Below are positions 45,524-63,989 of a stretch of 64,000 nt of DNA, piece after piece. The first letter of the stretch is position 1, and the number at the start of each line of letters is the position of its first letter. Source of the DNA: a virus. Under the pieces are notes generated by a model that saw nothing but the letters and a program-made list of their open reading frames with translations, was not told the origin of the DNA and did not search any database. The stretch spans positions 40,213 through 104,212 of IMG/VR virus record IMGVR_UViG_3300044641_010298; one strand, given 5' to 3'. The translations under genes were made by a program, and so were the position numbers.

Positions 45524-45576
45524 GTTGCTCCTCCCTACCTGATCATAGTACCACAGCGGGTCGCGGTGACACGCGG

Positions 45577-46365
45577 CTACGGGTTCTTTGGATCCCAGCG
45601 CCTCTGCTCGGGGATCGACTCGGTGTACAGCCGCACCGCTCGGGCAACATCTGTGTGCCCAGCCGACTCTGCCAGCCGCGCGATGGCGTTGCCCTCTCTC
45701 TCTATGATGTCGTTCATCATCTGTGACACCTGGCTGATGTCCTCTGGCATCGTGTTATAGACATCCCTGAGGTAATCAGCTGACACCTGGTAGGCATCGT
45801 CTGTCTTGTCGAGGAAGTCGATTGTGCTGAGGCCGTAGCCGCCCCACTTGATCATCTTGAAGGCTCCCTCGATGACAGTGCCGGCGCGGATCTCCACCAT
45901 GTCCATGAGCGCGCCGACATAGCCCAGGATTGACATGCCCATGAAGAAGATGGAGATGTGGTAGGCGGTCTCGTAGGCTTCTAGCACGGTGGCTCGCTGC
46001 GCCGGGTCCAGCCTCTCCTGCTGCGCGAGCGCATCCTCGTACCTCTTCTTCGCCAGCGAGAACTGGACGACAGAGGTGAGCAGCGCTGTTGTGTCAAATA
46101 TGAACCCAGTGTACCTCAGGTTCCCCTGGATGAAGTTGGTGACGAAGCCGAACAGGTCGTTGATCGCGCTGATCGACTGGAGGCTGTCCTCCATGTCTTG
46201 AGTGTCTAGCATCTGCAGCACATCAGCGTGAGAGGCTGCGACCGTGGCTGCTGGGTTCTTGTGTGCTAGCCGCCCGGTGTCTGGCTCGAAGGTCCCGAGC
46301 TCAGCCTCTCTCAGCAGCTCTCTCACCGCCTCTCGAAGCAGGCGGCCCTGTGTCGTCACGCTCAT
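45577..46365 (-). CDS. leader-motif protein with hydrophobic segments
   Basis: 262 aa; 'RLLREAVRELLRE'; GATATGTAG upstream. Confidence 0.65.
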   Translation of the reverse strand: MSVTTQGRLLREAVRELLREAELGTFEPDTGRLAHKNPAATVAASHADVLQMLDTQDMEDSLQSISAINDLFGFVTNFIQGNLRYTGFIFDTTALLTSVVQFSLAKKRYEDALAQQERLDPAQRATVLEAYETAYHISIFFMGMSILGYVGALMDMVEIRAGTVIEGAFKMIKWGGYGLSTIDFLDKTDDAYQVSADYLRDVYNTMPEDISQVSQMMNDIIEREGNAIARLAESAGHTDVARAVRLYTESIPEQRRWDPKNP

Positions 46366-46403
46366 CGTGTAGCCCCATGTTGAGGCTACATATCACCCGC
46401 CGA

Positions 46404-46727
46404 TCAGCTGTGGACCAGGGCCTTGCACATCCGGGCGATCGCCACCCGACCACCGCGGCCGATCAGCAGGTCCGGGTCGTGCCCCTCGGTCACGGACAGG
46501 GTGGCCTCGGGGACACCGTGGCCGACGGGCTTCGGCATCCGGGGGAGGAGCCCGTTCCAGTTCACCTTGAACCGGGTCGGGTACCGGGGATCCATGCGGT
46601 CGGTGGCCACGAACTTGTGCTCCTGGCCTTCGGGGCCGACCGCGATCCCGCTGACCGCGGTGGTGCCCAGGGGGGAGACCGTGACGGAGGTGATCTTGAA
46701 GGTCCAGCGGAGGTTGGCGGTGGCCAT
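46404..46727 (-). CDS. cassette protein family A, paralog of 57596..57928
   Basis: shares 'HKFVATDRMDPRYPTRFKVNWNGL.PRMPKPVGHGV'. Confidence 0.85.
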   Translation of the reverse strand: MATANLRWTFKITSVTVSPLGTTAVSGIAVGPEGQEHKFVATDRMDPRYPTRFKVNWNGLLPRMPKPVGHGVPEATLSVTEGHDPDLLIGRGGRVAIARMCKALVHS

Positions 46728-46796
46728 GTTGTCGTCCTTGGTTTGGGGTCCGTTAGCTCAGACATCATACCATTCAACGCCTGAGGCGCACGGGCC

Positions 46797-46916
46797 TCAG
46801 TTGAGGCAGTTGATCAGCGGGCAGATCCCGGAGAGGTAGACGAGGGCCGCGACATTGGCGACGAAGAGGGACCCAGCGATCGAGACGGTGCCCCAGATGA
46901 CGGTGTCGGTGGTCAT
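46797..46916 (-). CDS. 39-aa membrane peptide
   Basis: MTTDTVIWGTVSIAGSLFVANVAALVYLSGICPLINCLN; AAGGAGG SD. Confidence 0.65.
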   Translation of the reverse strand: MTTDTVIWGTVSIAGSLFVANVAALVYLSGICPLINCLN

Positions 46917-46933
46917 TTGATTCCTCCTTCCTG

Positions 46934-46952
46934 GGCGGTGTCCATCACCGCC
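46934..46952 (-). promoter_or_regulatory. AUGGA-loop leader hairpin (copy 1 of 6)
   Basis: GGCGGUG-AUGGA-CACCGCC upstream of SD. Confidence 0.7.
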
Positions 46953-46998
46953 TCCTTGCCAGATCATCATACCATTCAGCGGTCAGCCCGCACGGGCT

Positions 46999-47208
46999 TC
47001 AGTGGTTGGCGATCCGGTTCGCCGCGGTCCGGTCGAGGTCCCAGCCCTTCTGCTGGACCGTCTGGTGGCTCGTGTCGACCAGGTCCTTCACCTCACCGCC
47101 CACCGTCCGGACAGTGAAGTTGCGGCCCGCAACCTCGATCACCTCAGCCGCCATCCACTCACCTCGGATCCGAACCACCAGGCTCTCACCAATCAGGGGA
47201 TTGACCAT
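46999..47208 (-). CDS. small SH3/Tudor-like cassette protein
   Basis: 69 aa; AAGGAGG SD; 'GESLVVRIRGEWMAAEV'. Confidence 0.7.
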   Translation of the reverse strand: MVNPLIGESLVVRIRGEWMAAEVIEVAGRNFTVRTVGGEVKDLVDTSHQTVQQKGWDLDRTAANRIANH

Positions 47209-47261
47209 GTTGCCTCCTTGTGATCCTATTCTACCACCGCGACCCTGCCCCGCACGGGCCG

Positions 47262-47543
47262 TCAGCCGACCATGAAGGCCGCCATCGGGACCCGCAGCGG
47301 GCGGCAGGCCGTCACCTCGGCCACCCAGGCCTCGTGCTTCGCCTCGGCCTCCGCCTCGAGCCGGGCCCGCTCACGCCACTCATCCTCGAGGTCCCGGGTC
47401 GCCGCCTCCCAGCCCTCCGCCGTGTCGTCCTCCGGGCGGTACCACCGCGGCTTGATGTTGTGGACCGCCTTGAAGGCGTCGACGAAGTTGTAGAAGGCCT
47501 CGACCTGGGCGTGGGTGGCGAAGGAGGCGGTGTTGATGGCCAT
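47262..47543 (-). CDS. cassette hypothetical protein
   Basis: 93 aa; 'DAFKAVHNIKPR'; own promoter. Confidence 0.75.
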   Translation of the reverse strand: MAINTASFATHAQVEAFYNFVDAFKAVHNIKPRWYRPEDDTAEGWEAATRDLEDEWRERARLEAEAEAKHEAWVAEVTACRPLRVPMAAFMVG

Positions 47544-47611
47544 GTTTGACTCCGTTCTCTGAGGTTGCCTAGCTCTGTTATTCTACCAACGGGTCCCAGG
47601 GACGCACGGGC

Positions 47612-47824
47612 CTACGTGAATCTTGAGCGGCGCCTTGCATCGATGTAGGCATCACCGGAGTCTTCAGCATCGCCAAACATTGGCTGAAACCGCTTGCTGT
47701 AGTGAGATCGGGTCGCTGTCTCGTCTTCCTCAGGCTCCCGCCAGGTCTCAGGGTCTTGATCGGGATCAGGCTTTCGTAGCTCTTCTCTGATGATGTGTCG
47801 AAGCTGGCGCTCGGTGATCCTCAC
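47612..47824 (-). CDS. leader-motif protein (MRITERQLRHIIREEL)
   Basis: 70 aa; GATATGTAG upstream. Confidence 0.75.
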   Translation of the reverse strand: MRITERQLRHIIREELRKPDPDQDPETWREPEEDETATRSHYSKRFQPMFGDAEDSGDAYIDARRRSRFT

Positions 47825-47920
47825 ATGTGCCCCTAGATGGGTCTACATATCGCCCTGGGCCAACAGCGACAACATCGCACAGACACAAGTCAGGCCCCAG
47901 TGACGGGGCCCGAGGTGGTG

Positions 47921-48301
47921 TTAGCGCGAGCGCTTGATTTGCAAGCCGTGCGGAACTCTTCCCGCCTCTATGCGGCTCTGGATCTCACCGGCTGGTAGAT
48001 CCAAGAATTCATCCGGATCGTCGCCGTACTCGTACTCATCCTCGTCTGGCTCATCGAGGTCGAGATTTGAAAACATGTCATCAAACTTCTTGCCAAAGTC
48101 AGGGTCAGTGAGCTTGGGTCGCCTGAACATTGTGGGCTCTCTCATCTTGCGGGCGGTCTCTGCACCCGGGCCAGAGAAGTCATCCATCCCAGACTCCTCG
48201 TAATCGCCTGTCTCTGGGTTCTTGCGGAATGTAACGCCCTTCCTCATCTCATTCAGCTCCTCGCGGACTATCCGGCGAAGCTGGCCCTCAGTGATCCTCA
48301 T
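47921..48301 (-). CDS. leader-motif protein (MRITEGQLRRIVREEL)
   Basis: 126 aa, acidic; GATATGTAG upstream. Confidence 0.8.
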   Translation of the reverse strand: MRITEGQLRRIVREELNEMRKGVTFRKNPETGDYEESGMDDFSGPGAETARKMREPTMFRRPKLTDPDFGKKFDDMFSNLDLDEPDEDEYEYGDDPDEFLDLPAGEIQSRIEAGRVPHGLQIKRSR

Positions 48302-48459
48302 GATGTGCCTCCTGTGATTCTACATATCGCCCCGCTCACCCAGTGCAGGATCAATGTTGCGCAGCGCCAGATCGCGCCCCTTGCATCAGGATCTCGGCGC
48401 CGTGATGCACATCGGGCGCCCCCAGACCGCATCTCCTGCAGCCTGTGGCGCCCTAGTGA

Positions 48460-48777
48460 TTAAGCCTTTGAACGCTTCCAGGCCATGTAGGCTGCCCTTC
48501 CCTCTTCAGCTGATCCGAAGTCCTGTCCGTGAGAAGGATGCGAAGATGGGAACTTGAGGCCGTAACGGAACTCATAATCAGCCTCTGACTCACCGGGACC
48601 GTCGTCGTCAACTCCGTAGTTCATCTCAGCGCTGCGGTCGTAGTCATATCCGCTGCTGTACCCGCCGCCGTAATAGCCGCTACCACCGTATTTGCTCCCG
48701 CCGCGGCGGTAGGTCTCTGTCATCCTGCTGATCTCTTCCTTGATGATCTTTCTCAACTGCGATGCTGTGATTCTCAT
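48460..48777 (-). CDS. leader-motif protein (MRITASQLRKIIKEEI), Gly/Tyr-rich
   Basis: 105 aa; GATAAGTAC upstream. Confidence 0.8.
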   Translation of the reverse strand: MRITASQLRKIIKEEISRMTETYRRGGSKYGGSGYYGGGYSSGYDYDRSAEMNYGVDDDGPGESEADYEFRYGLKFPSSHPSHGQDFGSAEEGRAAYMAWKRSKA

Positions 48778-48894
48778 GTGATCCTCTTGGTGTCTGTACT
48801 TATCACCATCCGTAGAACTTTAGCAGCGTTGTGAACACAACATTCCAGAACAGGATCAGCGTTGCCTTCAACAGGGTATCGAGGACCCAGAGCT

Positions 48895-49110
48895 CTACAG
48901 CCTGCCGTGTGATTCGAGCATGGTCACCACCTCGGGCGGTAGCTCCTCCTTCAGGATGCTCTGTGTCCCCACGCGGCCGTCCTTCGTCTTGTAGCCGATC
49001 TGCCATCCGTGCCTCACCTTCTGCTCTACCTCTAGCTCTGTCCCCTTGGGCCACTCAGTGCCGAAGCGGGTCGTGTACTTCTGCTTGAGAGTTACAACTT
49101 CACCAACCAT
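48895..49110 (-). CDS. SH3-like hypothetical protein
   Basis: 71 aa; AAGGAGG SD. Confidence 0.7.
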   Translation of the reverse strand: MVGEVVTLKQKYTTRFGTEWPKGTELEVEQKVRHGWQIGYKTKDGRVGTQSILKEELPPEVVTMLESHGRL

Positions 49111-49120
49111 TCTCTCCTCC

Positions 49121-49447
49121 TTAGCCTAGCGCCCAGCAGAGCGCAGCGAAAGCGATTGTGAATCCGATCTCCATCACCACCCGGGCCACATCTCTCGCCA
49201 GCGGCGGCGGCATCACCAGGAGCGACAAGCCCACCAGCCCGAGGGCAGCGGAGTACATGATCACATTGGCGATCAGGAACGCCGTCCCCCAGCCCCCAGC
49301 GATCAGGAGCACCGTGAGCAGGGACCAGCACCCGCGGAGCATGAGCGCCCAGGTTGGGTCATTCGCTCGCAGCGCCCGCCACATGTCCCAGATGGTCAGG
49401 GCGCCCCAGAGAATTGCACCGATCGATGGCATAGAACATCCTAACAC
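49121..49447 (-). CDS. multi-pass membrane protein
   Basis: several hydrophobic helices; start may be 49432. Confidence 0.6.
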   Translation of the reverse strand: MLGCSMPSIGAILWGALTIWDMWRALRANDPTWALMLRGCWSLLTVLLIAGGWGTAFLIANVIMYSAALGLVGLSLLVMPPPLARDVARVVMEIGFTIAFAALCWALG

Positions 49448-49465
49448 CCAGTGGGTGCTTGTGTA

Positions 49466-49606
49466 TCAGGTTCGAGAGATCTGGGAACAGACCACCAGCA
49501 TCACGACCCAAGCGACCATCAGGCCCAGGAGCCAGGCGGGGCCGTCGGACCAGGCGATGTGATCGACGGCCATGAGCTGGTGGAAACCCGAGATGACGTT
49601 GTCCAT
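49466..49606 (-). CDS. 46-aa membrane peptide
   Basis: MDNVISGFHQ...WLLGLMVAWVVMLVVCSQISRT; GGAGG SD and cassette promoter. Confidence 0.6.
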   Translation of the reverse strand: MDNVISGFHQLMAVDHIAWSDGPAWLLGLMVAWVVMLVVCSQISRT

Positions 49607-49658
49607 TCTTCCCTCCGTGGATCTATTATAACACGTGACCAAGATCCTGCACGGGTCT

Positions 49659-50111
49659 CTACCCAGCGTCCTCCCAGTCCTTGATCCGCTGCCAGAGGTC
49701 GAAGAGCCGCTTCACATCGGCGAGGGGCAGGGAGGTGAGTCCCTCGCTGAACTTGAGCGAGAGCTCGTCCATGTCCACCGTCACATCACCGCCACCCATG
49801 TTCACCGTGATGCTCCGGATCGGCTGGAAGGGGACGATGCAGCCCGAGGGGCTGACGGGACGGACAGCCGGCGTGCCGTCAGCAGTGGTCATGCCCCTGT
49901 CAGCCATCAGGACCTCGACGGCCTCCTTCGCCTCCTTCAGGCCGACGCCGGGCCGGTCCTTGCCGCTGAAAGGATCGATCGTTCGGTGGCGAGAGGCGTC
50001 GCGGACCACCTTGATCGCGTTGATCTTGTTGGCGTAGCCGCCGCCCGTCTTGTCGTCCAGGAGCGTCTTCACCTGGCTCATCTCTTCCGCGGTCAGCATG
50101 ATCTTGATCAT
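49659..50111 (-). CDS. ribosomal protein bL12 (L7/L12) CTD-like domain protein
   Basis: 'NKINAIKVVR' and 'GLKEAKEAVE' match L7/L12 C-terminal motifs, separated by an insertion. Confidence 0.7.
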   Translation of the reverse strand: MIKIMLTAEEMSQVKTLLDDKTGGGYANKINAIKVVRDASRHRTIDPFSGKDRPGVGLKEAKEAVEVLMADRGMTTADGTPAVRPVSPSGCIVPFQPIRSITVNMGGGDVTVDMDELSLKFSEGLTSLPLADVKRLFDLWQRIKDWEDAG

Positions 50112-50128
50112 CTTTCCTCTCCGTGGTT

Positions 50129-50467
50129 CTATTCTACCAGGACCCCGCGCTCTCGCAGGAGCTTCACAGCTGCGGTGTGCCCGTGAGCCGTGAGGATCTC
50201 GATCGCTTTCGCCTCAGCGGTGGGCTCGTCATCGGTGTCAGCGAGGATGTGACCCAGCTCGTGAGCCTCAATCGCCAGCAGGTGGTCGGGAGTGCACCAT
50301 CCCTGGCTGGCGATGCGCCCATCGATCACAGCGACTGGGTACTCCGTCCCGCGGATCGCATAGCCGTGATTCTGATCAGAGAGCCGCTCGACCACCGTGC
50401 CTTCATCTCGGTCCTCAACCTCGACGACCAGCACATTGCTTGCCATGTCGGACATCCTGAACTTCAT
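50129..50467 (-). CDS. HExxH metallopeptidase-like protein
   Basis: 'AIEAHELGHI...E..AE'. Confidence 0.6.
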   Translation of the reverse strand: MKFRMSDMASNVLVVEVEDRDEGTVVERLSDQNHGYAIRGTEYPVAVIDGRIASQGWCTPDHLLAIEAHELGHILADTDDEPTAEAKAIEILTAHGHTAAVKLLRERGVLVE

Positions 50468-50493
50468 CTCGCCTCCCTTCTACATCTATCGTA

Positions 50494-50913
50494 TCACTTC
50501 GCATGCCCGTCACACAGCGTGCGGACCCAGCCTCCGCCGCGGGGCTTCCCAGGTGCACCACAGATCTCACAGGTGCGGAGCGCAAGCGATTCAGCGAGAG
50601 CGATTGCACCGTCGATGTAGTCGTCGCTATTGCTCACATAGAATCGCAGCCCGCCCCACTTCTCCTTCACCTGCACCGCGACTGTCTGGTGGCCCTCATC
50701 CCATTCAGCATCAGTGAGGTCCTTAAAGTCGCTCTTCTTCCGCTTCCAGTCCAGGTGGTGCTGGATTGTGTTACACAGCGTGTCGACGATGTCATACCAG
50801 CCGTCGTCATGCTCGAAGCCGAAGCACATCAGTGTCTGGCGGGGATCGCCCCGCCTGTCACAAAAGATCTTCGGGTATCGCTCACACAGTGACTTGTCCT
50901 TCTCCTCAGTCAT
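50494..50913 (-). CDS. phage hypothetical protein with C-terminal Zn ribbon
   Basis: 'GFEHDDGW', 'QVKEKWGGLRFY', 'CEICG...C..H'. Confidence 0.75.
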   Translation of the reverse strand: MTEEKDKSLCERYPKIFCDRRGDPRQTLMCFGFEHDDGWYDIVDTLCNTIQHHLDWKRKKSDFKDLTDAEWDEGHQTVAVQVKEKWGGLRFYVSNSDDYIDGAIALAESLALRTCEICGAPGKPRGGGWVRTLCDGHAK

Positions 50914-51119
50914 TTATTCCTCTCGTTGTGTCTATCGAGCATCGCTTGAATCGCTTCGATCACCACCCGCTGGAATCCCTCTTGATCGTCCGGCTGGAGC
51001 CCAAACGCTGCATAGAACTGGTCAACCTTGTCATCCTCGATCTCGAAGACAAATCGCGACCCGCCACCCTCTTGCGGAGCCTCGCTAATGCTCAGCAGCC
51101 CAGGAATATCACTCATCAT
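50910..51119 (-). CDS. hypothetical protein
   Basis: 69 aa, overlapping start/stop with neighbours. Confidence 0.6.
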   Translation of the reverse strand: MMSDIPGLLSISEAPQEGGGSRFVFEIEDDKVDQFYAAFGLQPDDQEGFQRVVIEAIQAMLDRHNERNK

Positions 51120-51453
51120 TCTTCACCTTTCCAGACGCAGCCAGCTCGGCGTAGCCTGGGTAGTACCCAGTTCCCTCGTGTAGATGCCTGAGCAGATTCT
51201 GGGGCCCGAATCCCTCAGCGTCACAGTGGGCATCCCAGAAGTCCTTGATCTCATCATAGGCTCGCAGCTGGACGGTGCGGAGCCGGAGGATCTCTTGGCT
51301 GAGGCGGGTCACCTCCGACTCAAGCGCAGCGACCTTGCTCGGCTCCGACACCCAGCGAGCGAAATCACGAATGACACCCTTGTGTGATCGAAGCAGGTCC
51401 TCGACATCCTGCTCGTTGATTCTATGCAGCCAGCCTGGCACATCGTTTGACAT
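51109..51453 (-). CDS. hypothetical protein
   Basis: 114 aa, GGAG SD. Confidence 0.6.
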   Translation of the reverse strand: MSNDVPGWLHRINEQDVEDLLRSHKGVIRDFARWVSEPSKVAALESEVTRLSQEILRLRTVQLRAYDEIKDFWDAHCDAEGFGPQNLLRHLHEGTGYYPGYAELAASGKVKNDE

Positions 51454-51461
51454 CGCTCCCC

Positions 51462-51629
51462 CTAGAAGGTGATCACCTGCTCCCAGTCAAATTCCTCGGC
51501 ATCCGTGAGCAGCGCATCAAAGAGGCTCTGCTCAGCGCCGGAATCACCCAGTGCCTCCTGCATCGCCTCGCTTGGTGGCTGGTCAGGCCGCCGCTCGATT
51601 ACAATCTGGCGCGTCCTGGCGCGGTCCAT
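51462..51629 (-). CDS. 55-aa acidic hypothetical protein
   Basis: MDRARTRQIV...EEFDWEQVITF; fills the gap with TGATG coupling. Confidence 0.5.
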   Translation of the reverse strand: MDRARTRQIVIERRPDQPPSEAMQEALGDSGAEQSLFDALLTDAEEFDWEQVITF

Positions 51630-51859
51630 CACTCATCCTCGCCACGCTTCGTGTTGCCTGTCTGGGGCTGGCGCTTCCGGATCACCAGGGTGGCCCGTGG
51701 GCGCTCGCCTGGCTTGAGCTCGGCGTCATCCTTCGGGTAGAAGACCACGAAGGTGCTGTCGCGGAGGTCAACGAGCGCTGGAAGATCGGCTCCGCCGATC
51801 AGGTACTCATCCCCGTTCTTGTCGGTGCGGGGCGTCAAACGGATCTCAAATTGGTTCAT
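51629..51859 (-). CDS. hypothetical protein
   Basis: MNQFEIRL..., AAGGA SD. Confidence 0.6.
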   Translation of the reverse strand: MNQFEIRLTPRTDKNGDEYLIGGADLPALVDLRDSTFVVFYPKDDAELKPGERPRATLVIRKRQPQTGNTKRGEDE

Positions 51860-51872
51860 GGTAACATCCTTT

Positions 51873-52142: not shown

Positions 52143-52172
52143 GGCTATATTCTGGTCCAGGGCTGCGGGTTG

Positions 52173-52352: not shown

Positions 52353-52360
52353 GTTGACTC

Positions 52361-57596: not shown

Positions 57597-57928
57597 CAGA
57601 AGGCCCCGTCCTGGACCAGGGCCTTGCACATCCGGGCGATGGCCACTCGGGCCCCTCGACCCATGAACAGGTCCTCATCGACCCCGGCCGTGCAGGCGAG
57701 AACCTCTTCCTTGACCCCGTGCCCGACCGGCTTGGGCATCCGGGGGTGGAGGCCATTCCAGTTGACCTTGAACCGGGTCGGGTACCGAGGGTCCATCCGG
57801 TCAGTCGCCACGAACTTGTGGGTCGTGCCGTCCGGAGCAGTGGCCACCCCGCTCACCGCGATCTGACCGATGGCCGAGCGGCGGATGTCCGTGATCGAGA
57901 AGCTCCAGCGAAGGTTGGCGGTGCTCAT
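57596..57928 (-). CDS. cassette protein family A, paralog of 46404..46727
   Basis: near-identical central segment. Confidence 0.85.
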   Translation of the reverse strand: MSTANLRWSFSITDIRRSAIGQIAVSGVATAPDGTTHKFVATDRMDPRYPTRFKVNWNGLHPRMPKPVGHGVKEEVLACTAGVDEDLFMGRGARVAIARMCKALVQDGAF

Positions 57929-58004
57929 TTCGTTCTCCTTGGTCCGTGGTTCCTTACCTTCCCATCATACCAGGTCGCTGTCCGCCCGCACGGGACTCGT
58001 AAGC

Positions 58005-58157
58005 TCAGGCTCCACGAATGAGTTCGATGCCGAGCGAGATCGAGGCCATGATGCTGATGAGGAAGGCGGTGCAGGCGACCGCGATCACGAGCCAGATCAG
58101 CTCGTCACGGGTCGGGAGGGTCGCGAGAGCGTTCCGGATCTGCCACTTGATGTCCAT
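58005..58157 (-). CDS. 50-aa membrane peptide
   Basis: MDIKWQIRN...LIWLVIAVACTAFLISIMASISLGIELIRGA. Confidence 0.6.
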   Translation of the reverse strand: MDIKWQIRNALATLPTRDELIWLVIAVACTAFLISIMASISLGIELIRGA

Positions 58158-58209
58158 TCTGTCCTCCGTGCTCTGTTATTGTACCATGCTTGCAGCCGCT
58201 CGCACGGGC

Positions 58210-58404
58210 TCAGTCCTTACACTTCTCACAGATGTACAGCTGATTGGCCGGCCAGTTCGCCTCGTAGGTGCCACACCACTTGCAGTCACGGCCCCAGTCC
58301 TTCGCCGACCCGACCATGTTCGCCTGAATGATGCGGGAGGGGCTGTGGGCCGCCTGGCGGCGCTTGGCGGTGGCGGCACGGGGATTGAAGAAGAGCTTGT
58401 CCAT
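58210..58404 (-). CDS. Zn-finger cassette protein
   Basis: 'CKWC...CEKC'. Confidence 0.7.
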   Translation of the reverse strand: MDKLFFNPRAATAKRRQAAHSPSRIIQANMVGSAKDWGRDCKWCGTYEANWPANQLYICEKCKD

Positions 58405-58457
58405 TCTGTCCTCCTTGGCCTGATTATTCTACCATCCGTACCGCCGCCCGCACGAGC

Positions 58458-58694
58458 TCAGTACATTGAGGCCAGGATGTCCATCTCACTGAAGCCGAAG
58501 GGGAACGGCTTGATCTGGTGGCTGAGCTCGGCCATGGCGACCAGGTGGTGCCCGCGGCCGGTGAAGGTGCAGACCACCATGTCGTTCCCGTAGTCGCCCT
58601 CCCACTGCTCGACCTTCAGGCCGAGCTCCTGGGCCAGGCTGAGGAAGCGGGGCAGGGTGTCCTTCGAGATGTTGATGTCGAGGTTCTTGGTCAT
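58458..58694 (-). CDS. cassette hypothetical protein
   Basis: MTKNLDINI...; GGAGG SD. Confidence 0.7.
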   Translation of the reverse strand: MTKNLDINISKDTLPRFLSLAQELGLKVEQWEGDYGNDMVVCTFTGRGHHLVAMAELSHQIKPFPFGFSEMDILASMY

Positions 58695-58706
58695 TCTGTC
58701 CTCCAG

Positions 58707-58725
58707 GGCGGGGTCCATCCCCTCC
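58707..58725 (-). promoter_or_regulatory. AUGGA-loop leader hairpin (copy 3)
   Basis: GGAGGGG-AUGGA-CCCCGCC (one mismatch). Confidence 0.65.
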
Positions 58726-58768
58726 ACCTTGCTTGGATATTGTACCATGCCGCCGGTAAGTCGCACGA

Positions 58769-59050
58769 CTAGGGGGAAACTGCCGTCTTGACCTCCTTCT
58801 TGGTGTAGGGGTGGGTGTACCGGACGATGAGCTCGATCGAGTCTTCATAGGACCATCGGGCATCGACCACCACTGCCTTCAGGTCATGGAGCTGGGTCTG
58901 ACCGGTGGTGGGGTCCTTCAGCTTCCGCTGGATGGTGATGAAACGGTGGACCAGCGGGAGGAAGGCCTGGTCGAGGGCCTTCTGGCGGTAGTCAGCTAAG
59001 AGGTCGTGGGCGGTGGTGGTGAAGGTCTCGAGCTCGTCGGGGGTGATCAT
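58769..59050 (-). CDS. cassette hypothetical protein
   Basis: 93 aa; AAGGAGG SD. Confidence 0.75.
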   Translation of the reverse strand: MITPDELETFTTTAHDLLADYRQKALDQAFLPLVHRFITIQRKLKDPTTGQTQLHDLKAVVVDARWSYEDSIELIVRYTHPYTKKEVKTAVSP

Positions 59051-59099
59051 TCTGTCCTCCTTGCTCCCTTATCATACCATCAGGTGTCGGCCTCGCACG

Positions 59100-59126
59100 A
59101 AACGGCCGCCCCCGAAGGGGCGGCCG
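59100..59126 (-). terminator. UUCG-loop hairpin/terminator
   Basis: CGGCCGCCCC-TTCG-GGGGCGGCCG followed by TTT, abutting the next promoter. Confidence 0.65.
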
Positions 59127-59138
59127 GCCGAGCTCCCA

Positions 59139-59588
59139 TCAGGCAAGGAGGAGGAGGAGCTCGGACTTGTTGAGGTCGGAGTAGCCCTTGAGGCCACGGT
59201 CCTTCGCACGGGCCTTCAGCTGGGGGACCGTCAGGGCGGTGAGGTCCTCGTGCGTCGGGGTCGGGTCCACGACCAGGTCGAGGAGGACCGGCTCGACCGG
59301 GGCCTCGACCTTCACGGTGACCGTGAGGTCGGCGGGGTCGGCCGCCTTCCGGGGCCGCTTGAGGGGCGCCGGGGTCATGTCGAGGCCGGCCTCGCGGACG
59401 GCCTTCTTGGCCGCGTGACCGACCGCGATCCGGGCCCCACGGTCGAGGTCACGGGCCGTGACGTGCATGAGGACCTTCGAGCCCCACTGGAGGCGGGTGG
59501 CGACGAAGGGGACATCGCCGATCGTGCCGACCACGGTGGGGGTGCCATCGACGGAGGTGACGGAGCTGATGGTGATGTTCTTGGCCAT
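59139..59588 (-). CDS. cassette protein family B with C-terminal Rho-N/HeH-like domain
   Basis: 'LQWGSKVLMHVT'; 'LTALTVPQLKARAKDRGLKGYSDLNKSEL'. Confidence 0.85.
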   Translation of the reverse strand: MAKNITISSVTSVDGTPTVVGTIGDVPFVATRLQWGSKVLMHVTARDLDRGARIAVGHAAKKAVREAGLDMTPAPLKRPRKAADPADLTVTVKVEAPVEPVLLDLVVDPTPTHEDLTALTVPQLKARAKDRGLKGYSDLNKSELLLLLA

Positions 59589-59657
59589 TTGTTCTTTCCT
59601 TGGTTGGTGGTGGGTGGCTTGATCATTATACCAGGTCAGCGGCATCCCGCACGGGAC

Positions 59658-59810
59658 CTATTCGGCGGCCAGGTCCTGGGCGGTCTCGAGGAGGCTGTCG
59701 ATCGTCTCGAGGTCGAGGCCGGACCAGAGGCCTCGGCTGATCAGGGTCGCCGTGTCCGCCCCGCCCTTGATTGCCGCCGCCGCCTGATCGATGAAGTCGT
59801 GATGAGCCAT
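59658..59810 (-). CDS. 50-aa cassette protein family C
   Basis: MAHHDFIDQ...ISRGLWSGLDLETIDSLL. Confidence 0.75.
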   Translation of the reverse strand: MAHHDFIDQAAAAIKGGADTATLISRGLWSGLDLETIDSLLETAQDLAAE

Positions 59811-59864
59811 TCTGTCCTCCTTACTCTGTTATTCTACCACCACTCTGTCTGCCCGCACGAACCC

Positions 59865-60038
59865 TCAGTACCCCCGGTGCGTGATCCGCTGGCCGACCAG
59901 GTTGAACACCTGCCCACAGGCGCACCGGGCACCGTCATGGGTGATGGTGAACGACTTGCCCGTCTCCTCGCACGCCACCCGGGTCCGGACCCGCTCCTTG
60001 CCGTTCACCGTGATCGTCACTTGGGTCTTCGTGTGCAT
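59865..60038 (-). CDS. Zn-ribbon-like cassette protein
   Basis: MHTKTQ...'CACGQVFNLVGQ'. Confidence 0.65.
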   Translation of the reverse strand: MHTKTQVTITVNGKERVRTRVACEETGKSFTITHDGARCACGQVFNLVGQRITHRGY

Positions 60039-60053
60039 GCTGCCCTCCTTCTC

Positions 60054-60072
60054 GACGGTGTCCATCACTGTC
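60054..60072 (-). promoter_or_regulatory. AUGGA-loop leader hairpin (copy 4)
   Basis: GACAGUG-AUGGA-CACCGUC (compensatory A-U, one mismatch). Confidence 0.6.
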
Positions 60073-60121
60073 CCCTTGATGATTCAGTTATACCAGGTGG
60101 GGGTCACCGTTGCACGAACCC

Positions 60122-60319
60122 TCAGCCGTTCGCCGGGGCCTCGTAGTTCCGGAGGTTGAACTCGCGGAGGGCGGCGCAGGTCTCCTTGTGGATGCCCCTC
60201 TCCTCGGCGAGCTTGAAGAGGGCGTTCGCGATGTCGGCGGTCTCCTTGGAGTCCAGGCCGTAGTTGACGTAGGCCTGGGTGGTGAGGCCGATGAGCTGAG
60301 CGATCTGGTTGGCGTTCAT
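60122..60319 (-). CDS. cassette hypothetical protein
   Basis: 65 aa; AAGGAGG SD. Confidence 0.75.
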   Translation of the reverse strand: MNANQIAQLIGLTTQAYVNYGLDSKETADIANALFKLAEERGIHKETCAALREFNLRNYEAPANG

Positions 60320-60371
60320 TCTGTCCTCCTTGCTCTGTTATTCTACCAGGTCGTGGGCCGCCCGCACGGGC

Positions 60372-60563
60372 TCAGCGGATCCAGCGAACCTCGACATCCA
60401 CCCACCGGTTGCCGTCCGGGTCGCCCGGGCTCGCCGCGACGATCTTGGCGCTGAGAACCCAGCGCCCCGGGTGCTCGGCCTCGAACTGGGCCTTCGCTGC
60501 GAGGATCGTCTCGCGGATATCGGCCGAGGTCTGGAAGAAGCGGATCTGATTGACGTGGGTCAC
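60372..60563 (-). CDS. cassette hypothetical protein
   Basis: 63 aa; AAGGAGG SD, GTG start. Confidence 0.7.
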   Translation of the reverse strand: MTHVNQIRFFQTSADIRETILAAKAQFEAEHPGRWVLSAKIVAASPGDPDGNRWVDVEVRWIR

Positions 60564-60616
60564 GATTACCTCCTTGCTCAGTTATTCTACCATCCGCTCC
60601 CCAGCCCGCACGAGCC

Positions 60617-60898
60617 TCAGTCGTGGGAGCCACGGCACCGGACCCCGTGGTCGGGGCAGCTGTAGCTGACGATGCAGCAGCACGGGACCTCCTCGGCCTT
60701 CGGGCAGCAGCGGCCACCGCTGATGGTCTCGGTCACCTGGCGTGCGTGGTGGGTCCAGGCGATGGGGGTCGGAGTGCCGCGGCCGAGGGAGGACCGCACC
60801 CGGGTGTTGAAGTCCTCCGGGCTCACTCCGAAGATTCCGGCCGAGGTCTGAAGCGCCTTGTAGTCCGCCCGGTACTGCTCGATCGACTTCGTCTTCAT
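60617..60898 (-). CDS. Cys-rich cassette protein
   Basis: 'CCPKA...CCC...SCPDHG..C.GSHD'; start MKTKS. Confidence 0.7.
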   Translation of the reverse strand: MKTKSIEQYRADYKALQTSAGIFGVSPEDFNTRVRSSLGRGTPTPIAWTHHARQVTETISGGRCCPKAEEVPCCCIVSYSCPDHGVRCRGSHD

Positions 60899-60951
60899 CT
60901 TGCCTCCTAGCTCTGTTATTGTACCACCCACTTGCCAACCCGCACGAGACC

Positions 60952-61092
60952 CTAGAACGGGGCCGTGCCGCTGTCGACCTGGGCCACCCAGGCCCAGAAG
61001 GTCTCGAGCTCCTCCGGGGTGGGGTCCTCGAGCCCCACCACCTCTTCATCATCACCACCGAAGTCGATGTCATCCACGATCAGGTCGCGCAT
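60952..61092 (-). CDS. 46-aa highly acidic peptide
   Basis: MRDLIVDDIDFGGDDEEVVGLEDPTPEELETFWAWVAQVDSGTAPF. Confidence 0.6.
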   Translation of the reverse strand: MRDLIVDDIDFGGDDEEVVGLEDPTPEELETFWAWVAQVDSGTAPF

Positions 61093-61177
61093 CTTGCCTC
61101 CGTAAAGCCATCATACCATCACAGTCGTGGCGCGCACGGGCAGCGCGTCGTGCGGGTGCAGCTCGCCCGGTGTAGGG

Positions 61178-61327
61178 TTAGGGCGGTGGCGGCCCGCTGC
61201 GGAGGCGGTCGACGACGGCCGCGACGACTCGGTAGCTGACGTCGAGCAGAGCTCCGGCAGCGTAGAAGGCGAGGCCGGTCGCCACAGCGGCAGCGACCAG
61301 GGCACAGACGGTGTTGACCAGTGACAT
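61178..61327 (-). CDS. 49-aa membrane peptide
   Basis: MSLVNTVCALVAAAVATGLAFYAAGALLD... Confidence 0.5.
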   Translation of the reverse strand: MSLVNTVCALVAAAVATGLAFYAAGALLDVSYRVVAAVVDRLRSGPPPP

Positions 61328-61328
61328 G

Positions 61329-61622
61329 TCAGCCCTCGTATCCGGCCGCGACGCAGCCGTTGATCCACTCGAAGAACATCTTCTGGCCGCTGATCCGGCT
61401 CACCTCATCACCGAGCTCGAGCCACCAGTCCAGGGGATTCGGGTGGTTGTAGTCGTTCGGGATCCCGGTCCCCTCGTGGATGATGCAGACCAGGGAGCCC
61501 TTCCGGCTCCAGCCGCCCGGGTCCTGCCCACCGCGGAAGACCATCTTGTTCACGTCCAGGTCCAGGCCCAGCTCCTTGCCGGCGATCTTGAGGGCGTGTT
61601 TCGTGGCGACGTAGGGGCTCAT
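61329..61622 (-). CDS. cassette hypothetical protein
   Basis: 97 aa; 'DPGGWS', 'FFEWIN'. Confidence 0.75.
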   Translation of the reverse strand: MSPYVATKHALKIAGKELGLDLDVNKMVFRGGQDPGGWSRKGSLVCIIHEGTGIPNDYNHPNPLDWWLELGDEVSRISGQKMFFEWINGCVAAGYEG

Positions 61623-61752
61623 TCCTTTCCTCCTTGCCTCGTTATTCTACCATGTGCTGGGCGCTGCGCACGGGCGCAGGATGCTGGGCGCTCGATAACC
61701 TGGGCGCAAGATGAGCGCTCGACAGCGAGCGCCCACCCCGGACCCGGAGGTC

Positions 61753-62079
61753 TCAGGCCTCGAGCTCGACCTCGAAGACCACCTCGGACAGGGCCACCGG
61801 CTCGGAAGGGGCGGCCTCGGAGGCCTCGACCTTGGTCTTCCGGGGGCGCTTGAGGGGGGCCGGGGTGAGGTCGATGCCCTGGGCACGGACGGCCTTCTTG
61901 GCCGCATGTCCGATCGAGATTCGGGTGCCCCGATCGAAGTCACCACCGGTCACGTGCATGAGGACCTTGCCGCCCCACTGGAGCTGGGAGGCCTGGAAGC
62001 TCTGCTCACCGACCGTGCCGAAGACCACCGCCTTGCCGTCCACCACCGTCACGTCAGAGATCTTGATGTCCTTGGCCAT
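61753..62079 (-). CDS. cassette protein family B
   Basis: 'LQWGGKVLMHVTGGDFDRGTRISIGHAAKK'. Confidence 0.85.
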   Translation of the reverse strand: MAKDIKISDVTVVDGKAVVFGTVGEQSFQASQLQWGGKVLMHVTGGDFDRGTRISIGHAAKKAVRAQGIDLTPAPLKRPRKTKVEASEAAPSEPVALSEVVFEVELEA

Positions 62080-62149
62080 TTGATTTCCCCTTGATTGTTG
62101 CCGTGATTGGCTTGGTTATTGTACCAGGTTCCCCGTCATTCGCACGGGA

Positions 62150-62377
62150 TCAGCGTTCGTATTCCTTGTACCGGCGCTGGATCTCAGCCACCTCTTTGCG
62201 GACGATTCGTGCGAGGGCCTCGCGGGCGTTCTGATCGTGCGACAGGGTGAAGGCGAGGCACTTGACCATCGTCTGGGCGACGACCGTCGAGCTCGCACCG
62301 GCGAAGCTGTCACCTTCGAGATCCATGTCGCACCAATCCACGAGGATGTCAGCGAGCTGAGCCATATCCGTGTCCAT
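62150..62377 (-). CDS. cassette hypothetical protein
   Basis: MDTDMAQL...; alternative in-frame start 62404 in hairpin loop. Confidence 0.65.
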   Translation of the reverse strand: MDTDMAQLADILVDWCDMDLEGDSFAGASSTVVAQTMVKCLAFTLSHDQNAREALARIVRKEVAEIQRRYKEYER

Positions 62378-62392
62378 GATTCCTTCCTCCAG

Positions 62393-62411
62393 GGCGGGGT
62401 CCATCCCCGCT
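62393..62411 (-). promoter_or_regulatory. AUGGA-loop leader hairpin (copy 5)
   Basis: GCGGGG-AUGGA-CCCCGC. Confidence 0.7.
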
Positions 62412-62456
62412 GCCTTGCTTGATCATTGTATCACTGTATCAGTCCGTCGCACGGGA

Positions 62457-62696
62457 TCACCAGATGACGAGCACCGCGATCTTGCCGTTCTCATCGTCCT
62501 GGTTGAACTCCGGCTCCTTGTCGGAGGGTTCCCAGTCATCCAGCTCGTCATCAGTCAGATCCGAGGTGTCATCGGACCAGGTGCCCCGAGAGACCTGGAC
62601 GATGTCCTCGGGATCACCCCGCTCCGGGTCCAGGACCTGGACCTTCATGTCCTGGGGGAGAGCCTGGAGCTCCTTGATCAGTTCCGAAACAGTCAT
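62457..62696 (-). CDS. acidic cassette protein (MTVxELIxxLxxxPxD type)
   Basis: 79 aa; AAGGAGG SD. Confidence 0.75.
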   Translation of the reverse strand: MTVSELIKELQALPQDMKVQVLDPERGDPEDIVQVSRGTWSDDTSDLTDDELDDWEPSDKEPEFNQDDENGKIAVLVIW

Positions 62697-62747
62697 GATT
62701 GCCTCCTTGCTTGATCATTGTATCACCCGCCCAGCCTGGCGCACGGG

Positions 62748-63098
62748 TCAGAGGCGGCCCTTGTGGTTCGTTCCGATCGAGCCGCTCTCGCCCACCTTCC
62801 TGAACTTCAGATTGCCCATGTAGCTGTTGCTGTTGGACATCTGACAGGCCTTACCCACGTTCTGTCCGCTGTTGGATCGCCACGCCTTCACATAGGCAGC
62901 TCGATCCTTCTCAGATCCGAAGGCGAGGACGGTGACGCCCACACCCTTTCCGTCACCGGCCGCGACCCCGGCATAAGGGACCGCCGTCTCGGTGCCCAGC
63001 TCCTCCACGCAGTCTGGGCACTCGTTGATCCGCCCGCCGATCGAGCGCTTCTGAGGAGAGGTGTGATCGAACGAGACCCCGCAGTGCTTGCAGTCCAT
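62748..63098 (-). CDS. Zn-ribbon cassette protein
   Basis: 'MDCKHCG...ECPDC'; AGGAGG SD. Confidence 0.75.
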   Translation of the reverse strand: MDCKHCGVSFDHTSPQKRSIGGRINECPDCVEELGTETAVPYAGVAAGDGKGVGVTVLAFGSEKDRAAYVKAWRSNSGQNVGKACQMSNSNSYMGNLKFRKVGESGSIGTNHKGRL

Positions 63099-63120
63099 TA
63101 TGCCTCCTGCGCTTATTGTA

Positions 63121-63330
63121 TCAGGTGTTGTCAGTGTCGCACGCCCCGCGGCAAGCCTTCCGGCTCGCTTCCCGCCGCTTGTCCGGTCGGACGCTGTGCT
63201 CACCCCGCCAGTCAGCCGGGGTGCCGCCGGCTGCGAAGTGGGCAGCTCGATCGAATCCCCGAAGGAGGCGGAGGGTGTCCAGCCGCTTCAGGGTGGTGGC
63301 CTTCAGGGTGTGGCGATTCGTGTGTGCCAT
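63121..63330 (-). CDS. basic cassette protein
   Basis: 69 aa; 'WRG......DKRREASRKACRG'. Confidence 0.7.
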   Translation of the reverse strand: MAHTNRHTLKATTLKRLDTLRLLRGFDRAAHFAAGGTPADWRGEHSVRPDKRREASRKACRGACDTDNT

Positions 63331-63380
63331 GATTCCTCCTTGCTCCTATATTGTATCAGGCTGCGGAGGACCCGCACGGG

Positions 63381-63545
63381 TTAGAACACCGTCTCATCCA
63401 GCGGCAGGGCGACGACCGGGCCTTCCCAGCCGGCCGGGACGTAGATCGCTTCCGCCTCGAGTCCACCGGTGTAGACGCGGCCCTCGAGCGTGGGGGCCTT
63501 CGCGACGTTGAAGAGGGTGGCGAGGAAGAGGATGATGGTGTTCAT
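63381..63545 (-). CDS. 54-aa protein with signal-like N-terminus
   Basis: MNTIILFLATLFNVAKA...; AAGGAG SD. Confidence 0.6.
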   Translation of the reverse strand: MNTIILFLATLFNVAKAPTLEGRVYTGGLEAEAIYVPAGWEGPVVALPLDETVF

Positions 63546-63589
63546 TGATGTCTCCTTGGTTCTGGTCTGGTGGGTGGTGCCTGGTTATT

Positions 63590-63721
63590 CTACTTGGTGG
63601 AACCGGTGACGCACGCGCGATGGTTCGACAGACCGACGCAGGCGGTGGACCCCTTCAGGCTCACAGTGACACCGAGGTAGAGAGCGAGGCCGATCGCGGC
63701 GACAATGATCAGAAGCTTCAT
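63590..63721 (-). CDS. 43-aa membrane peptide
   Basis: MKLLIIVAAIGLALYLGVTVSLKG...; AAGGAGG SD. Confidence 0.55.
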   Translation of the reverse strand: MKLLIIVAAIGLALYLGVTVSLKGSTACVGLSNHRACVTGSTK

Positions 63722-63733
63722 CTTGTCCTCCTT

Positions 63734-63752
63734 GGCGGTGTCCATCACCGCC
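63734..63752 (-). promoter_or_regulatory. AUGGA-loop leader hairpin (copy 6)
   Basis: GGCGGUG-AUGGA-CACCGCC, identical to copy 1. Confidence 0.7.
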
Positions 63753-63803
63753 GCCTTGGTTGGTTACCTGCCCATTGTATCACCGCGCCTGGGCGGCGCA
63801 CGA

Positions 63804-63989
63804 TCAGAACTCGTTTGGCCGCGCGCTCTGGTGCATCTTCTTGAGGATCTCCTGCTCGCGGGCATCGATCTCCGCCTCGCGTCGGACGAAGGCCTCGGTC
63901 GCCTGCTTCAGCCGGCGGGCGGTGAGCCAGAGCATCGAGGTGTAGACACCGGTGATCGCAGCGATCGCAGCGATGGGCCCCATGATCAC
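63804..63989 (-). CDS. membrane-anchored small protein
   Basis: 61 aa; TM helix plus coiled coil; GGAGG SD. Confidence 0.6.
   Translation of the reverse strand: MIMGPIAAIAAITGVYTSMLWLTARRLKQATEAFVRREAEIDAREQEILKKMHQSARPNEF

Follow-up and report, generated by a model that had tools for sequence, protein, structure and literature searches.

The 64,000-nucleotide stretch of DNA analysed here (the window, whose own numbering is used throughout) is the final 64 kb of the 104,212-bp virus record IMGVR_UViG_3300044641_010298, and its distal part is an array of small gene cassettes punctuated by co-oriented copies of a promoter-like element of fixed geometry. This array probably represents a hyperplastic region in the genome of a T4-like phage, large and uncultured, and is organized by promoter modules of the kind known as PeSLs (promoter-early stem-loop cassettes) that would double as recombination patches. 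In T4-type phages, PeSLs have been described as compact terminator-promoter-Shine-Dalgarno modules that separate the ORFans of hyperplastic regions (Arbiol, 2010, PMC2839356; Comeau, 2014, PMC4122927). A first-pass annotation of the window, made from the sequence alone, had put the array forward as the best candidate for an undescribed system, a suggestion that has to be given up since the phage is T4-like and the design is that of the PeSL cassettes already known from T4-type phages. What is new is an unusually long, regular and GC-rich form of such an array.

The element, CCCGTGCG-N14-TGN-TANRAT, is present in 33 copies on the minus strand between 45.5 and 63.8 kb, or in 35 if two degenerate copies are counted, which bears out the earlier estimate of about 36 copies at fixed spacing. 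The equivalent geometry, as read from the sequence, is CCCGTGC followed by 15 nt, TGN and TANRAT; with up to two mismatches allowed, this pattern gave 33 matches in the window, all on the minus strand between positions 46764 and 63804, against a mean of 0.56 and a maximum of 3 in shuffled sequence. Localization of the motif across the whole record, which had been proposed along with the estimate, confined it to the array: the core pattern CGTGC-N15-TGNTANRAT gave 32 matches in the 104,212 bp, all on the reverse strand and all within the array, with none elsewhere in the record and none for the reversed control pattern. When the gap was freed to 13–17 nt it was exactly 15 nt in 32 of 32 copies, and the spacing is unchanged in the two degenerate ones. 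Successive promoters lie a median of 348 bp apart (range 192–2305). At 21 of the 33 junctions the stop codon of the previous gene is 0–3 nt before the box, and at two more it overlaps the first base of the box. Each copy is followed by a leader of 16–83 nt, most often 19–21 nt, with a strong AAGGAGG-type Shine-Dalgarno sequence, and then by an open reading frame (ORF) of 30–150 amino acids.

A consensus drawn from 369 unique copies in 88 sequences extends the conserved element beyond the positions that were forced by the search. In the box, the bases before GTGC are C (0.88), C or T (0.74/0.22) and C (0.99), and the base after it is G (0.86); a G precedes the TG in 0.63 of copies, the discriminator is A-rich, and the AAGGAGG-type ribosome-binding site is conserved. 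The G (0.78) and C (0.73) found at +7 and +8 after the -10 hexamer probably mark the transcription start point. In the array copies the -10 is near-consensus, the TG is invariant and the spacing is fixed. Judged by its sequence, the element lacks none of the hallmarks of a strong promoter of the extended -10 type, as the first-pass annotation had supposed. The box CCCGTGCG occupies positions -37 to -30, and the hexamer at the -35 position is CGTGCG, which is not TTGACA-like. A conserved RNA or DNA hairpin around the box was also considered and rejected, as a short CCC/GGG stem occurs in about one-third of the window copies and no structure is common to all; an Rfam scan of the array matched no family.

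Comparison with related sequences shows gains, losses and duplications of whole cassettes with breakpoints in the promoter or leader. The related records G000, G001 and G002 are 28–52% complete, and G001 is the closest relative. The backbone of the array is colinear between the window and G001, as are the core genes that flank it; seven units are confined to the window, seven others are confined to G001, and two neighbours have been swapped. In chained nucleotide alignments of the promoter-dense part against G001, 10 of 12 gaps have both edges at -5 to +54 relative to the promoter start, which places them within the promoter or its leader. In 10 of the 12 cases the alignments on either side of the gap overlap in the shorter genome, by 6–54 nt; its one promoter copy is therefore matched by two copies in the longer genome. 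A hybrid-looking junction was also found in G001, where copy B10 resembles window copy 61140 in its -10 region and window copy 60948 in its leader and ORF, and all three copies are identical over 12 nt around the ribosome-binding site. In the full set of 88 sequences, the zone from -15 to +65 around promoter starts makes up 8.3% of the DNA and contains 41% of the internal homology ends (a five-fold enrichment), and at least one break was observed at 68% of junctions with a promoter compared with 41% of gene junctions without a recognizable one. Promoters are thus the preferred sites of homology ends, although not the sole ones. The earlier proposal that the element serves as a crossover point is accordingly supported by relatives in which cassettes have been gained, lost, duplicated and locally reordered at the promoter or leader, and a stable gene order with breakpoints unrelated to the element is not what these relatives show.

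In the mechanism that we propose, a module consists of the box CCCGTGCG at -37 to -30, a 14-nt spacer, TGN-TANRAT, a short leader and AAGGAGG, followed by one or a few tiny genes. Transcription would start at every module and read through the next ones, because most modules begin no more than 3 nt after the previous stop codon and few terminators are present. The promoter plus leader, about 50 nt repeated in the same orientation every ∼350 bp, would act as a patch of homology, and recombination at the patch would delete, insert, duplicate or swap whole genes, each of which would keep a working promoter. Experiments on the PeSL cassettes of T4-type coliphages have demonstrated such a mechanism there. 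We infer from the sequence comparisons that recombination at the repeat is a cause, and not a mere correlate, of cassette turnover.

The likeness to PeSLs is close in several respects. PeSLs border insertions, deletions, replacements and displacements between close relatives, and recombination between them yields mini-circles, some of the crossovers falling in the interval from the -10 to the Shine-Dalgarno site (PMC2839356, PMC4122927). The array likewise sits in a variable region of a T4-like phage that differs by 14 whole cassettes from its closest relative, its compact promoter and Shine-Dalgarno modules stand directly between small ORFan genes, and whole-gene differences between its relatives are bordered by modules, with crossovers within the module. 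RB49 and phi1 carry 51–52 PeSLs per genome, with at most 8 in ∼5 kb (PMC2839356, PMC4122927), and the array has a density similar to that densest published patch, in RB49. It differs in holding 33–35 consecutive modules in 18 kb, as opposed to 51–52 over a whole RB49 or phi1 genome, and in a codon usage radically different from that of the rest of the genome. PeSL promoters are strong and sigma-70-like, with -35 and -10 boxes 17 nt apart. The predicted promoters of the array have CCCGTGCG at -35 in place of a TTGACA-like hexamer, together with an invariant TG. The stem-loop terminator from which PeSLs take their name is also missing at most array junctions.

Several observations weigh against this reading. 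A scan with the standard sigma-70 TTGACA/TATAAT consensus detects none of the array promoters, the -35 box being unlike TTGACA, and a search for the strict pattern in 185,579 species genomes returned 20 scattered single matches, which is the chance level, and identified no host using the promoter. There is no enrichment of T-tract terminators, of which 10 were found for an expectation of 9.4, and a strong GC hairpin precedes the box at only about 4–5 of the 33 junctions, such that the stem-loop terminators that define PeSLs are scarce. Promoter activity and its timing are predictions from base sequence. The frequency of breaks at junctions without a promoter likewise counts against the proposed role of the repeat, and because the promoter is almost the only intergenic DNA, the clustering of breakpoints could in part reflect the survival of intact genes.

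This last point can be developed into an account in which the repeats are passive: exchange would be ordinary, illegitimate or homologous, only events between genes would survive, and the promoters would simply fill the intergenic space. It draws on the breaks at 41% of promoter-less junctions, on the 23 of 33 junctions at which the stop codon overlaps the box or lies within 3 nt of it, leaving almost no other intergenic DNA, and on one insertion (63753–63562) with a start codon at its first edge and its other edge 181 nt away from the next promoter. Against it stand the greater frequency of breaks at junctions with a promoter than at those without, and the alignment of two flanking copies to one at 10 of 12 gaps, as expected for a crossover within the repeat, and at least one junction (B10 of G001) looks hybrid; moreover, for PeSLs there is direct evidence that repeats of this kind recombine (PMC2839356). 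A passive role of the repeats is regarded as unlikely. Far less probable still are a site-specific cassette system of the integron type and the joining of foreign GC-rich DNA, whether as an island or as an assembly chimera, to an AT-rich phage, even though the array contains many unrelated small ORFs in one orientation and is entered through an abrupt jump in GC content from ∼40% to ∼60% near 44–45 kb of the window. As in integron arrays, a one-directional row of unrelated small genes varies between relatives. However, each cassette has its own promoter-like element in place of a common Pc, and exchange apparently proceeds through promoter and leader homology. The tyrosine recombinase family PF00589 gave no match at E ≤ 0.01 in the incomplete records G000, G001 and G002, although all control genomes matched, the junctions consist of a stop codon and then a promoter, folds of 68 of them reveal no shared attC-like structure, and none of the array matched an Rfam family. 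The array is most probably not an integron, because no tyrosine recombinase was found in these three incomplete records, no attC-like structure is present and every cassette has its own promoter; the first-pass description of an integron-like appearance lacking attC sites agrees with this.

An assembly artefact is contradicted by the contigs themselves. In the IMG/VR contigs of G001 and G002, with capsid proteins that share 96% and 84% identity with that of the record, the GC-rich array recurs at the same locus and adjoins the same AT-rich core. A second promoter-like motif, (G)ATATGTAG, occurs on the minus strand at window positions 38970, 39735, 44954, 46393, 47850 and 48327, ∼20 nt before the start codons of genes that share an N-terminal 'MRIT..QLR.II.EE' helix and have unrelated bodies. 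This gene family is found on both sides of the GC boundary, with three of its members (48777–48460, 44042–43707 and 43579–42902) lacking the exact motif. Since three independent contigs share the junction and the GC step, and since a promoter-plus-gene family spans the boundary, the array is not an assembly chimera. All three contigs (the record, G001 and G002) break in or at the array, as expected if repeats and population diversity fragment the assembly.

The record is a genuine T4-like phage, an assignment that follows from PHROG matches in its first 20 kb to a major head protein (phrog_138), a portal protein and a gp17-type large terminase. By terminase, the closest isolates are Microcystis phage Mel-JY01 (44%), Flavobacterium phage 'immuto' (41%) and, through gp17, the T4-like cyanophages (35%). 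CheckV estimates the record to be 32% complete, and the full genome is therefore probably ∼300 kb. Near-identity searches of 50,697 isolate phage records gave no match, whether for the array or for core sequence. G001 was alone among 2.9 million IMG/VR contigs in having many strict-motif copies (33–35), and at least 120 array-bearing stretches were recovered from metagenome contigs, nearly all of them of ∼60% GC and with several co-oriented copies. Going by the sample identifiers, we take most of these stretches to come from lakes and rivers, and the phage appears to be of freshwater origin. Array fragments with 11 promoter copies were also found on five short contigs (C294, C552, C51, C595 and C699) of a 5.3-Mb bacterial metagenome-assembled genome, 'WB9_2_064' (G004). 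This genome was rejected as host evidence, as 20 related assemblies contained no copies, and the fragments are read as mis-binned phage pieces.

The array and core differ sharply in codon usage. GC content at the first, second and third codon positions is 0.63, 0.46 and 0.86 in array genes and 0.48, 0.41 and 0.36 in core genes; AGA accounts for 2% of arginine codons in the array compared with 57% in the core, ATA for 1% compared with 27% of isoleucine codons, GGA for 10% compared with 57% of glycine codons, and AAA for 4% compared with 28% of lysine codons. At least 12 tRNA genes are present in G002 in two clusters (C1:164895–172823), mostly for A/U-rich codons, and these tRNAs read AAA, CAA, GAA, UUA, UUG, AGA, AGG, GGA and AUA, which are used by the core and avoided by the array. 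This suggests that the array is tuned to the tRNA pool of a GC-rich host and could be translated at once, with the core dependent on phage tRNAs and likely translated later, although uptake of cassettes from GC-rich sources could add to the split. Because the array avoids and the core uses the codons read by the relative's tRNAs, the array would be expressed before phage tRNAs build up. Early expression, which the first-pass annotation had assumed, is thus probable and finds indirect backing in these avoided codons and in the presence of a sigma gene behind the same type of promoter in relatives. A raised third-position GC content of box-promoter genes elsewhere in G002 was also considered, and was set aside as modest (0.49–0.68). 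Codon usage in T4 has reportedly been linked to the time of expression, and the tRNAs of cyanophages on GC-rich Synechococcus are said to be a related case. As in those phages, the putatively later genes use codons of phage tRNAs and the putatively early genes would fit the host pool; unlike in those cases, the split here (0.86 versus 0.36 at third positions) occurs within one genome and is sharply confined to one array.

By default, the box promoters are taken to be read early by host polymerase. It has to be weighed against this that they may be a phage-specific class, read by sigma machinery of the phage itself, and not plain host early promoters, a possibility that we consider doubtful. 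A truncated sigma factor would in that case require the invariant TGN extended -10, and CCCGTGCG would be read by a 73-amino-acid (aa) region-4.2 protein or by another phage factor, comparable to MotA with its Mot box in the middle promoters of T4; the shuffling of cassettes would not be affected. G002 encodes a 246-aa RpoD-like sigma (C1:147349–148089) that keeps regions 1.2, 2, 3 and 4.1 and ends before region 4.2, the -35-reading helix, matching positions 1–196 of the 238 in the RpoD_Cterm profile and residues 100–325 of the 368 in SigA of the B. subtilis type. More than 100 homologs of this truncated sigma, 235–263 aa in length, were found, one of them on a 266-kb contig with an array. The window itself encodes, at 31758–31979 on the plus strand, a 73-aa Cys-rich protein with a region-4.2-type helix-turn-helix that matches positions 195–225 of the same profile, and the two proteins are complementary in view of these profile positions. 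Separate small region-4.2 genes, with products of 73–90 aa, are present in G002 and in 5 of 5 large truncated-sigma records tested, as well as in G000 and G001 (the sigma locus lies outside their contigs), whereas 0 of 5 complete phages with a full-length sigma carry one. The recognition helix of the small protein, TRMRICQ, is invariant in eight phages. E. coli sigma-70 without region 4.2 reportedly still works at extended -10 promoters; a sigma lacking this region should need such promoters, and every array promoter belongs to this class. Truncated-sigma genes are preceded by an excess of GTGC at -19/-20 from the TG (11 to 0.47), even in phages of 36% GC, the sigma gene is headed by the same promoter type in five relatives, and in G002 it lies directly behind one of four box-type promoters. 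In the scan of 185,579 species genomes, no bacterial genome made repeated use of the motif.

Other evidence argues for retaining the host polymerase as the reader. Five large genomes with a truncated sigma and the identical TRMRICQ helix have only 0–1 GTGC-box promoters, such that the helix does not track the box, and for the same reason GTGC-box promoters were rejected as a clade-wide trait. The location of the sigma gene after a box promoter is just as compatible with a classic cascade, the host polymerase reading the box promoters early and the phage sigma then serving a later class, and the sigma gene is absent from the contig of the window. Departures from the host -35 consensus are known in the early promoters of T4 too. 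AsiA (PF09010) had no match in four incomplete records, nor in any control genome. The fuller proposal of a phage-private promoter class served by a split sigma, made up of the truncated RpoD-like protein and a 73-aa zinc-finger-like protein with the altered specificity residues TRMRICQ, is offered tentatively and is on balance improbable, the link between the split sigma and the array promoters being hypothetical.

Precedents exist for both the divided sigma and the unusual box. Group 2 jumbo phages, which have a T4-like capsid, are reported to possess both a minimal sigma with a single helix-turn-helix and an RpoD-like sigma (Iyer et al., 2021, PMC7824862). In these phages, as in the two-part sigmas T4 gp55 plus gp33 and B. 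subtilis SigO-RsoA, sigma functions reside on two polypeptides, as they would here; the difference is that here the RpoD-like protein is without exactly region 4.2 and the small protein is exactly region 4.2. Like T4 middle promoters and the promoters of the 'PmSL' cassettes of phage nt-1, which contain a Mot box, those of the array combine a good -10 with a box that is not of the sigma-70 type and is set at constant distance near -30/-35, and in nt-1 such promoters also occur as shuffling cassettes (PMC4122927). The Mot box of T4, whose middle promoters work through the appropriation of sigma by AsiA and MotA, is TGCTT centred at -30, in contrast to CCCGTGCG at -37 to -30 here. The array also resembles the host-takeover region of SPO1 and the early regions of T4 and T5, with their close-set strong promoters and small, mostly unknown genes at one genome end, and one account of SPO1 places the phage sigma gene in the early class (PMC13401047). 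The promoters of those early clusters, however, match the host consensus, and extreme regularity, a promoter for each gene and cassette turnover, as seen in the array, are not described there.

Returning to the array as a row of PeSL-type modules, it comprises ∼35 promoter modules and ∼51–55 small genes with a median length of ∼76 aa (Table 1). The first-pass annotation had assigned one tiny, unrelated ORF to most copies. The short leader, Shine-Dalgarno sequence and ORF after each copy are indeed present, but about nine units hold 2–6 genes each, three sets of paralogs occur (59588/53471/62079, 57928/46727 and 59810/52638) and an HNH gene is included. The latter runs on the opposite strand, where the array has a gap of lower GC content; its unit measures 1087 bp in the window, against 243 bp for the corresponding one in G001, and the gene is probably a mobile insertion. 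Two of the three array genes that lack a box promoter (48301–47921 and 47824–47612) lie behind the GATATGTAG motif. At 52383–52436 on the minus strand, a hydrophobic mini-ORF of 17 codons, MAIIMGIIILLFLASFR, lies between a box promoter and the next gene and is preceded by a ribosome-binding site of its own. Two in-frame candidate starts are found at 62404–62377, 58718–58694 and 52638–52614 on the same strand, the first in each case being ATGGA after GGCGGGG or GGAGGGG.

Table 1. Modules and other features of the cassette array, in window coordinates (aa, amino acids; GC3, GC content at third codon positions).
Feature	Position	Strand	Remarks
Whole cassette array	45422..64000	-	56–66% GC in 2-kb windows; genes GC3 0.86; runs off contig end
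Degenerate promoter, box CGCGTGTC, -10 TACTAT, same spacing	45545..45575	-	Precedes 33-aa membrane-type ORF 45523–45422
Promoter (TATGAT)	46764..46794	-	Heads ORF 46727–46404, 107 aa, paralog of 57928–57596
Promoter	46966..46996	-	Heads ORF 46916–46797, 39 aa, membrane-type
Promoter	47228..47258	-	Heads ORF 47208–46999, 69 aa; cassette absent from G001
Promoter	47580..47610	-	Heads ORF 47543–47262, 93 aa
Three genes without box promoter inside array	47612..48777	-	All of 'MRIT..QLR.II.EE' N-terminal family
Promoter (box CCCGTGCA, TGT-TATAAT)	49625..49655	-	Multi-gene unit 49606–49466, 49432–49121, 49110–48895
Promoter, 2 mismatches (CTCCTGCG)	50131..50161	-	Heads ORF 50111–49659, 150 aa
Degenerate promoter (GCTGTGTG ... 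TGATACGAT)	50488..50518	-	Heads ORF 50467–50129, 112 aa
Promoter	52436..52466	-	17-codon mini-ORF, then 52352–52173 and more genes to 50494 (2.3-kb multi-gene unit)
Promoter	52659..52689	-	Heads ORF 52638/52614–52468, paralog of 59810–59658
Promoter after GC hairpin	53032..53062	-	Heads ORF 53011–52706, 101 aa
Promoter	53513..53543	-	Heads ORF 53471–53088, 127 aa, family 0 (commonest cassette family)
HNH endonuclease gene interrupting array	53637..54392	+	Pfam HNH, E = 3.7e-08
Promoter	54600..54630	-	Heads ORF 54580–54386, 64 aa
Promoter	54944..54974	-	Heads ORF 54915–54631, 94 aa
Promoter	55227..55257	-	Heads ORF 55205–54975, 76 aa
Promoter (CGCGTGCA, TGATACAAT)	55927..55957	-	Heads 55910–55818 (30 aa, membrane-type) and 55821–55258
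Promoter	57316..57346	-	Heads six-gene overlapping operon 57285–55960
Promoter	57964..57994	-	Heads 57928–57596 (110 aa) and 57596–57393
Promoter	58178..58208	-	Heads ORF 58157–58005, 50 aa, membrane-type; cassette absent from G001
Promoter	58426..58456	-	Heads ORF 58404–58210, 64 aa
Promoter	58739..58769	-	Heads ORF 58718/58694–58458; cassette absent from G001
Promoter directly after strong GC hairpin (terminator-like)	59071..59101	-	Heads ORF 59050–58769; cassette absent from G001
Promoter	59625..59655	-	Heads ORF 59588–59139, 149 aa, family 0, C-terminal Rho_N/SAP-like motif
Promoter	59831..59861	-	Heads ORF 59810–59658, 50 aa; G001 without cassette at matching position, only paralog B28 matches
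Promoter	60340..60370	-	Heads 60319–60122 and 60038–59865; unit absent from G001
Promoter	60584..60614	-	Heads ORF 60563–60372, 63 aa
Promoter	60918..60948	-	Heads ORF 60898–60617, 93 aa
Promoter	61110..61140	-	Heads ORF 61092–60952, 46 aa, very acidic; cassette absent from G001, where the junction resembles a hybrid of both flanking promoter/leader copies
Promoter	61644..61674	-	Heads 61622–61329 and 61327–61178
Promoter	62118..62148	-	Heads ORF 62079–61753, 108 aa, family 0
Promoter	62425..62455	-	Heads ORF 62404/62377–62150
Promoter	62717..62747	-	Heads ORF 62696–62457, 79 aa, acidic
Promoter	63115..63145	-	Heads ORF 63098–62748, 116 aa, two CxxC pairs
Promoter	63350..63380	-	Heads ORF 63330–63121, 69 aa
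Promoter	63774..63804	-	Heads 63721–63590 (absent from G001) and 63545–63381

The cassette ORFs are real genes under purifying selection, as follows from 14 equal-length ortholog pairs between the window and G001, in which substitutions at codon positions 1, 2 and 3 number 75, 68 and 186 and synonymous codon changes number 140 compared with 118 non-synonymous ones. The reading frames of the six-gene operon were likewise confirmed by phase-specific third-position substitutions relative to G001. In searches of Pfam and of PHROG, 49 of 53 array proteins had no match in either case, the other four giving weak or uninformative ones. Nine of 51 array proteins look membrane-anchored, 12 are very acidic and three contain two CxxC pairs. 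The 595 cassette ORFs of the 88-sequence set fall into 160 families, including 64 singletons, and gene orders are mosaic, one family having different neighbours in different contigs. Family 0, with three copies in the array and 36 in the whole set, has a conserved N-terminal domain of ∼80 aa and a basic LKRPRK motif, and its C-terminal tail is often Rho_N/SAP-like, which is its only Pfam signal. Its matches in the ESM Atlas are viral hypothetical proteins. An AlphaFold model (mean pLDDT 74.7) gives the N-terminal domain four strands and a helix, and a comparison of the model with the PDB returned no match below E = 0.25, the top rows, to RAD52 at a TM score of 0.15, not being usable. Kinship between the MAK(N/D)I and ANLRW cassette families was rejected as unsupported (hhalign probability 2.8%, E = 0.016). 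An anti-host or anti-defence role of the cassette proteins, as advanced in the first-pass annotation, would be a guess by analogy.

Some features of the AT-rich core may be recorded here. A PIN-PhoH fusion is encoded at 30395–31702, and genes for a PrkA kinase, SpoVR and a DUF444 (YeaH-like) protein form a trio at 34482–38908 on the minus strand. PrkA was rejected as a cyanophage marker, its best phage matches being to Thermus phages and metagenomic megaphages at ∼33% identity. Several glycosyltransferase genes (GT1/GT4 and GT2) are located amid structural-type genes at 9458–11859 and 24008–25894 on the minus strand.

The array extends the PeSL idea of regulatory cassettes as recombination scaffolds, until now based on entero- and vibriophages, to a distant uncultured lineage, probably of jumbo T4-like phages and seemingly common in lake metagenomes. 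The design is seen here at its cleanest, with dozens of one-gene modules of invariant geometry and at least 160 small-gene families turning over, and the array thereby provides a clean and large natural data set on the shuffling of regulatory cassettes. The small cassette proteins constitute a ready list of candidates for predicted host-takeover or counter-defence functions, and the two codon dialects in one phage genome, host-matched and phage-tRNA-matched, make the link to expression timing testable. The combination of a non-canonical -35 box, a truncated sigma and a stand-alone region-4.2 protein poses a concrete question about how phages redirect transcription. If the split sigma does read these promoters, the position of the sigma gene behind the same promoter would create a positive feedback loop through which the host polymerase would be redirected to a recombining pool of small genes, comprising more than 160 families that freshwater phages have in common.

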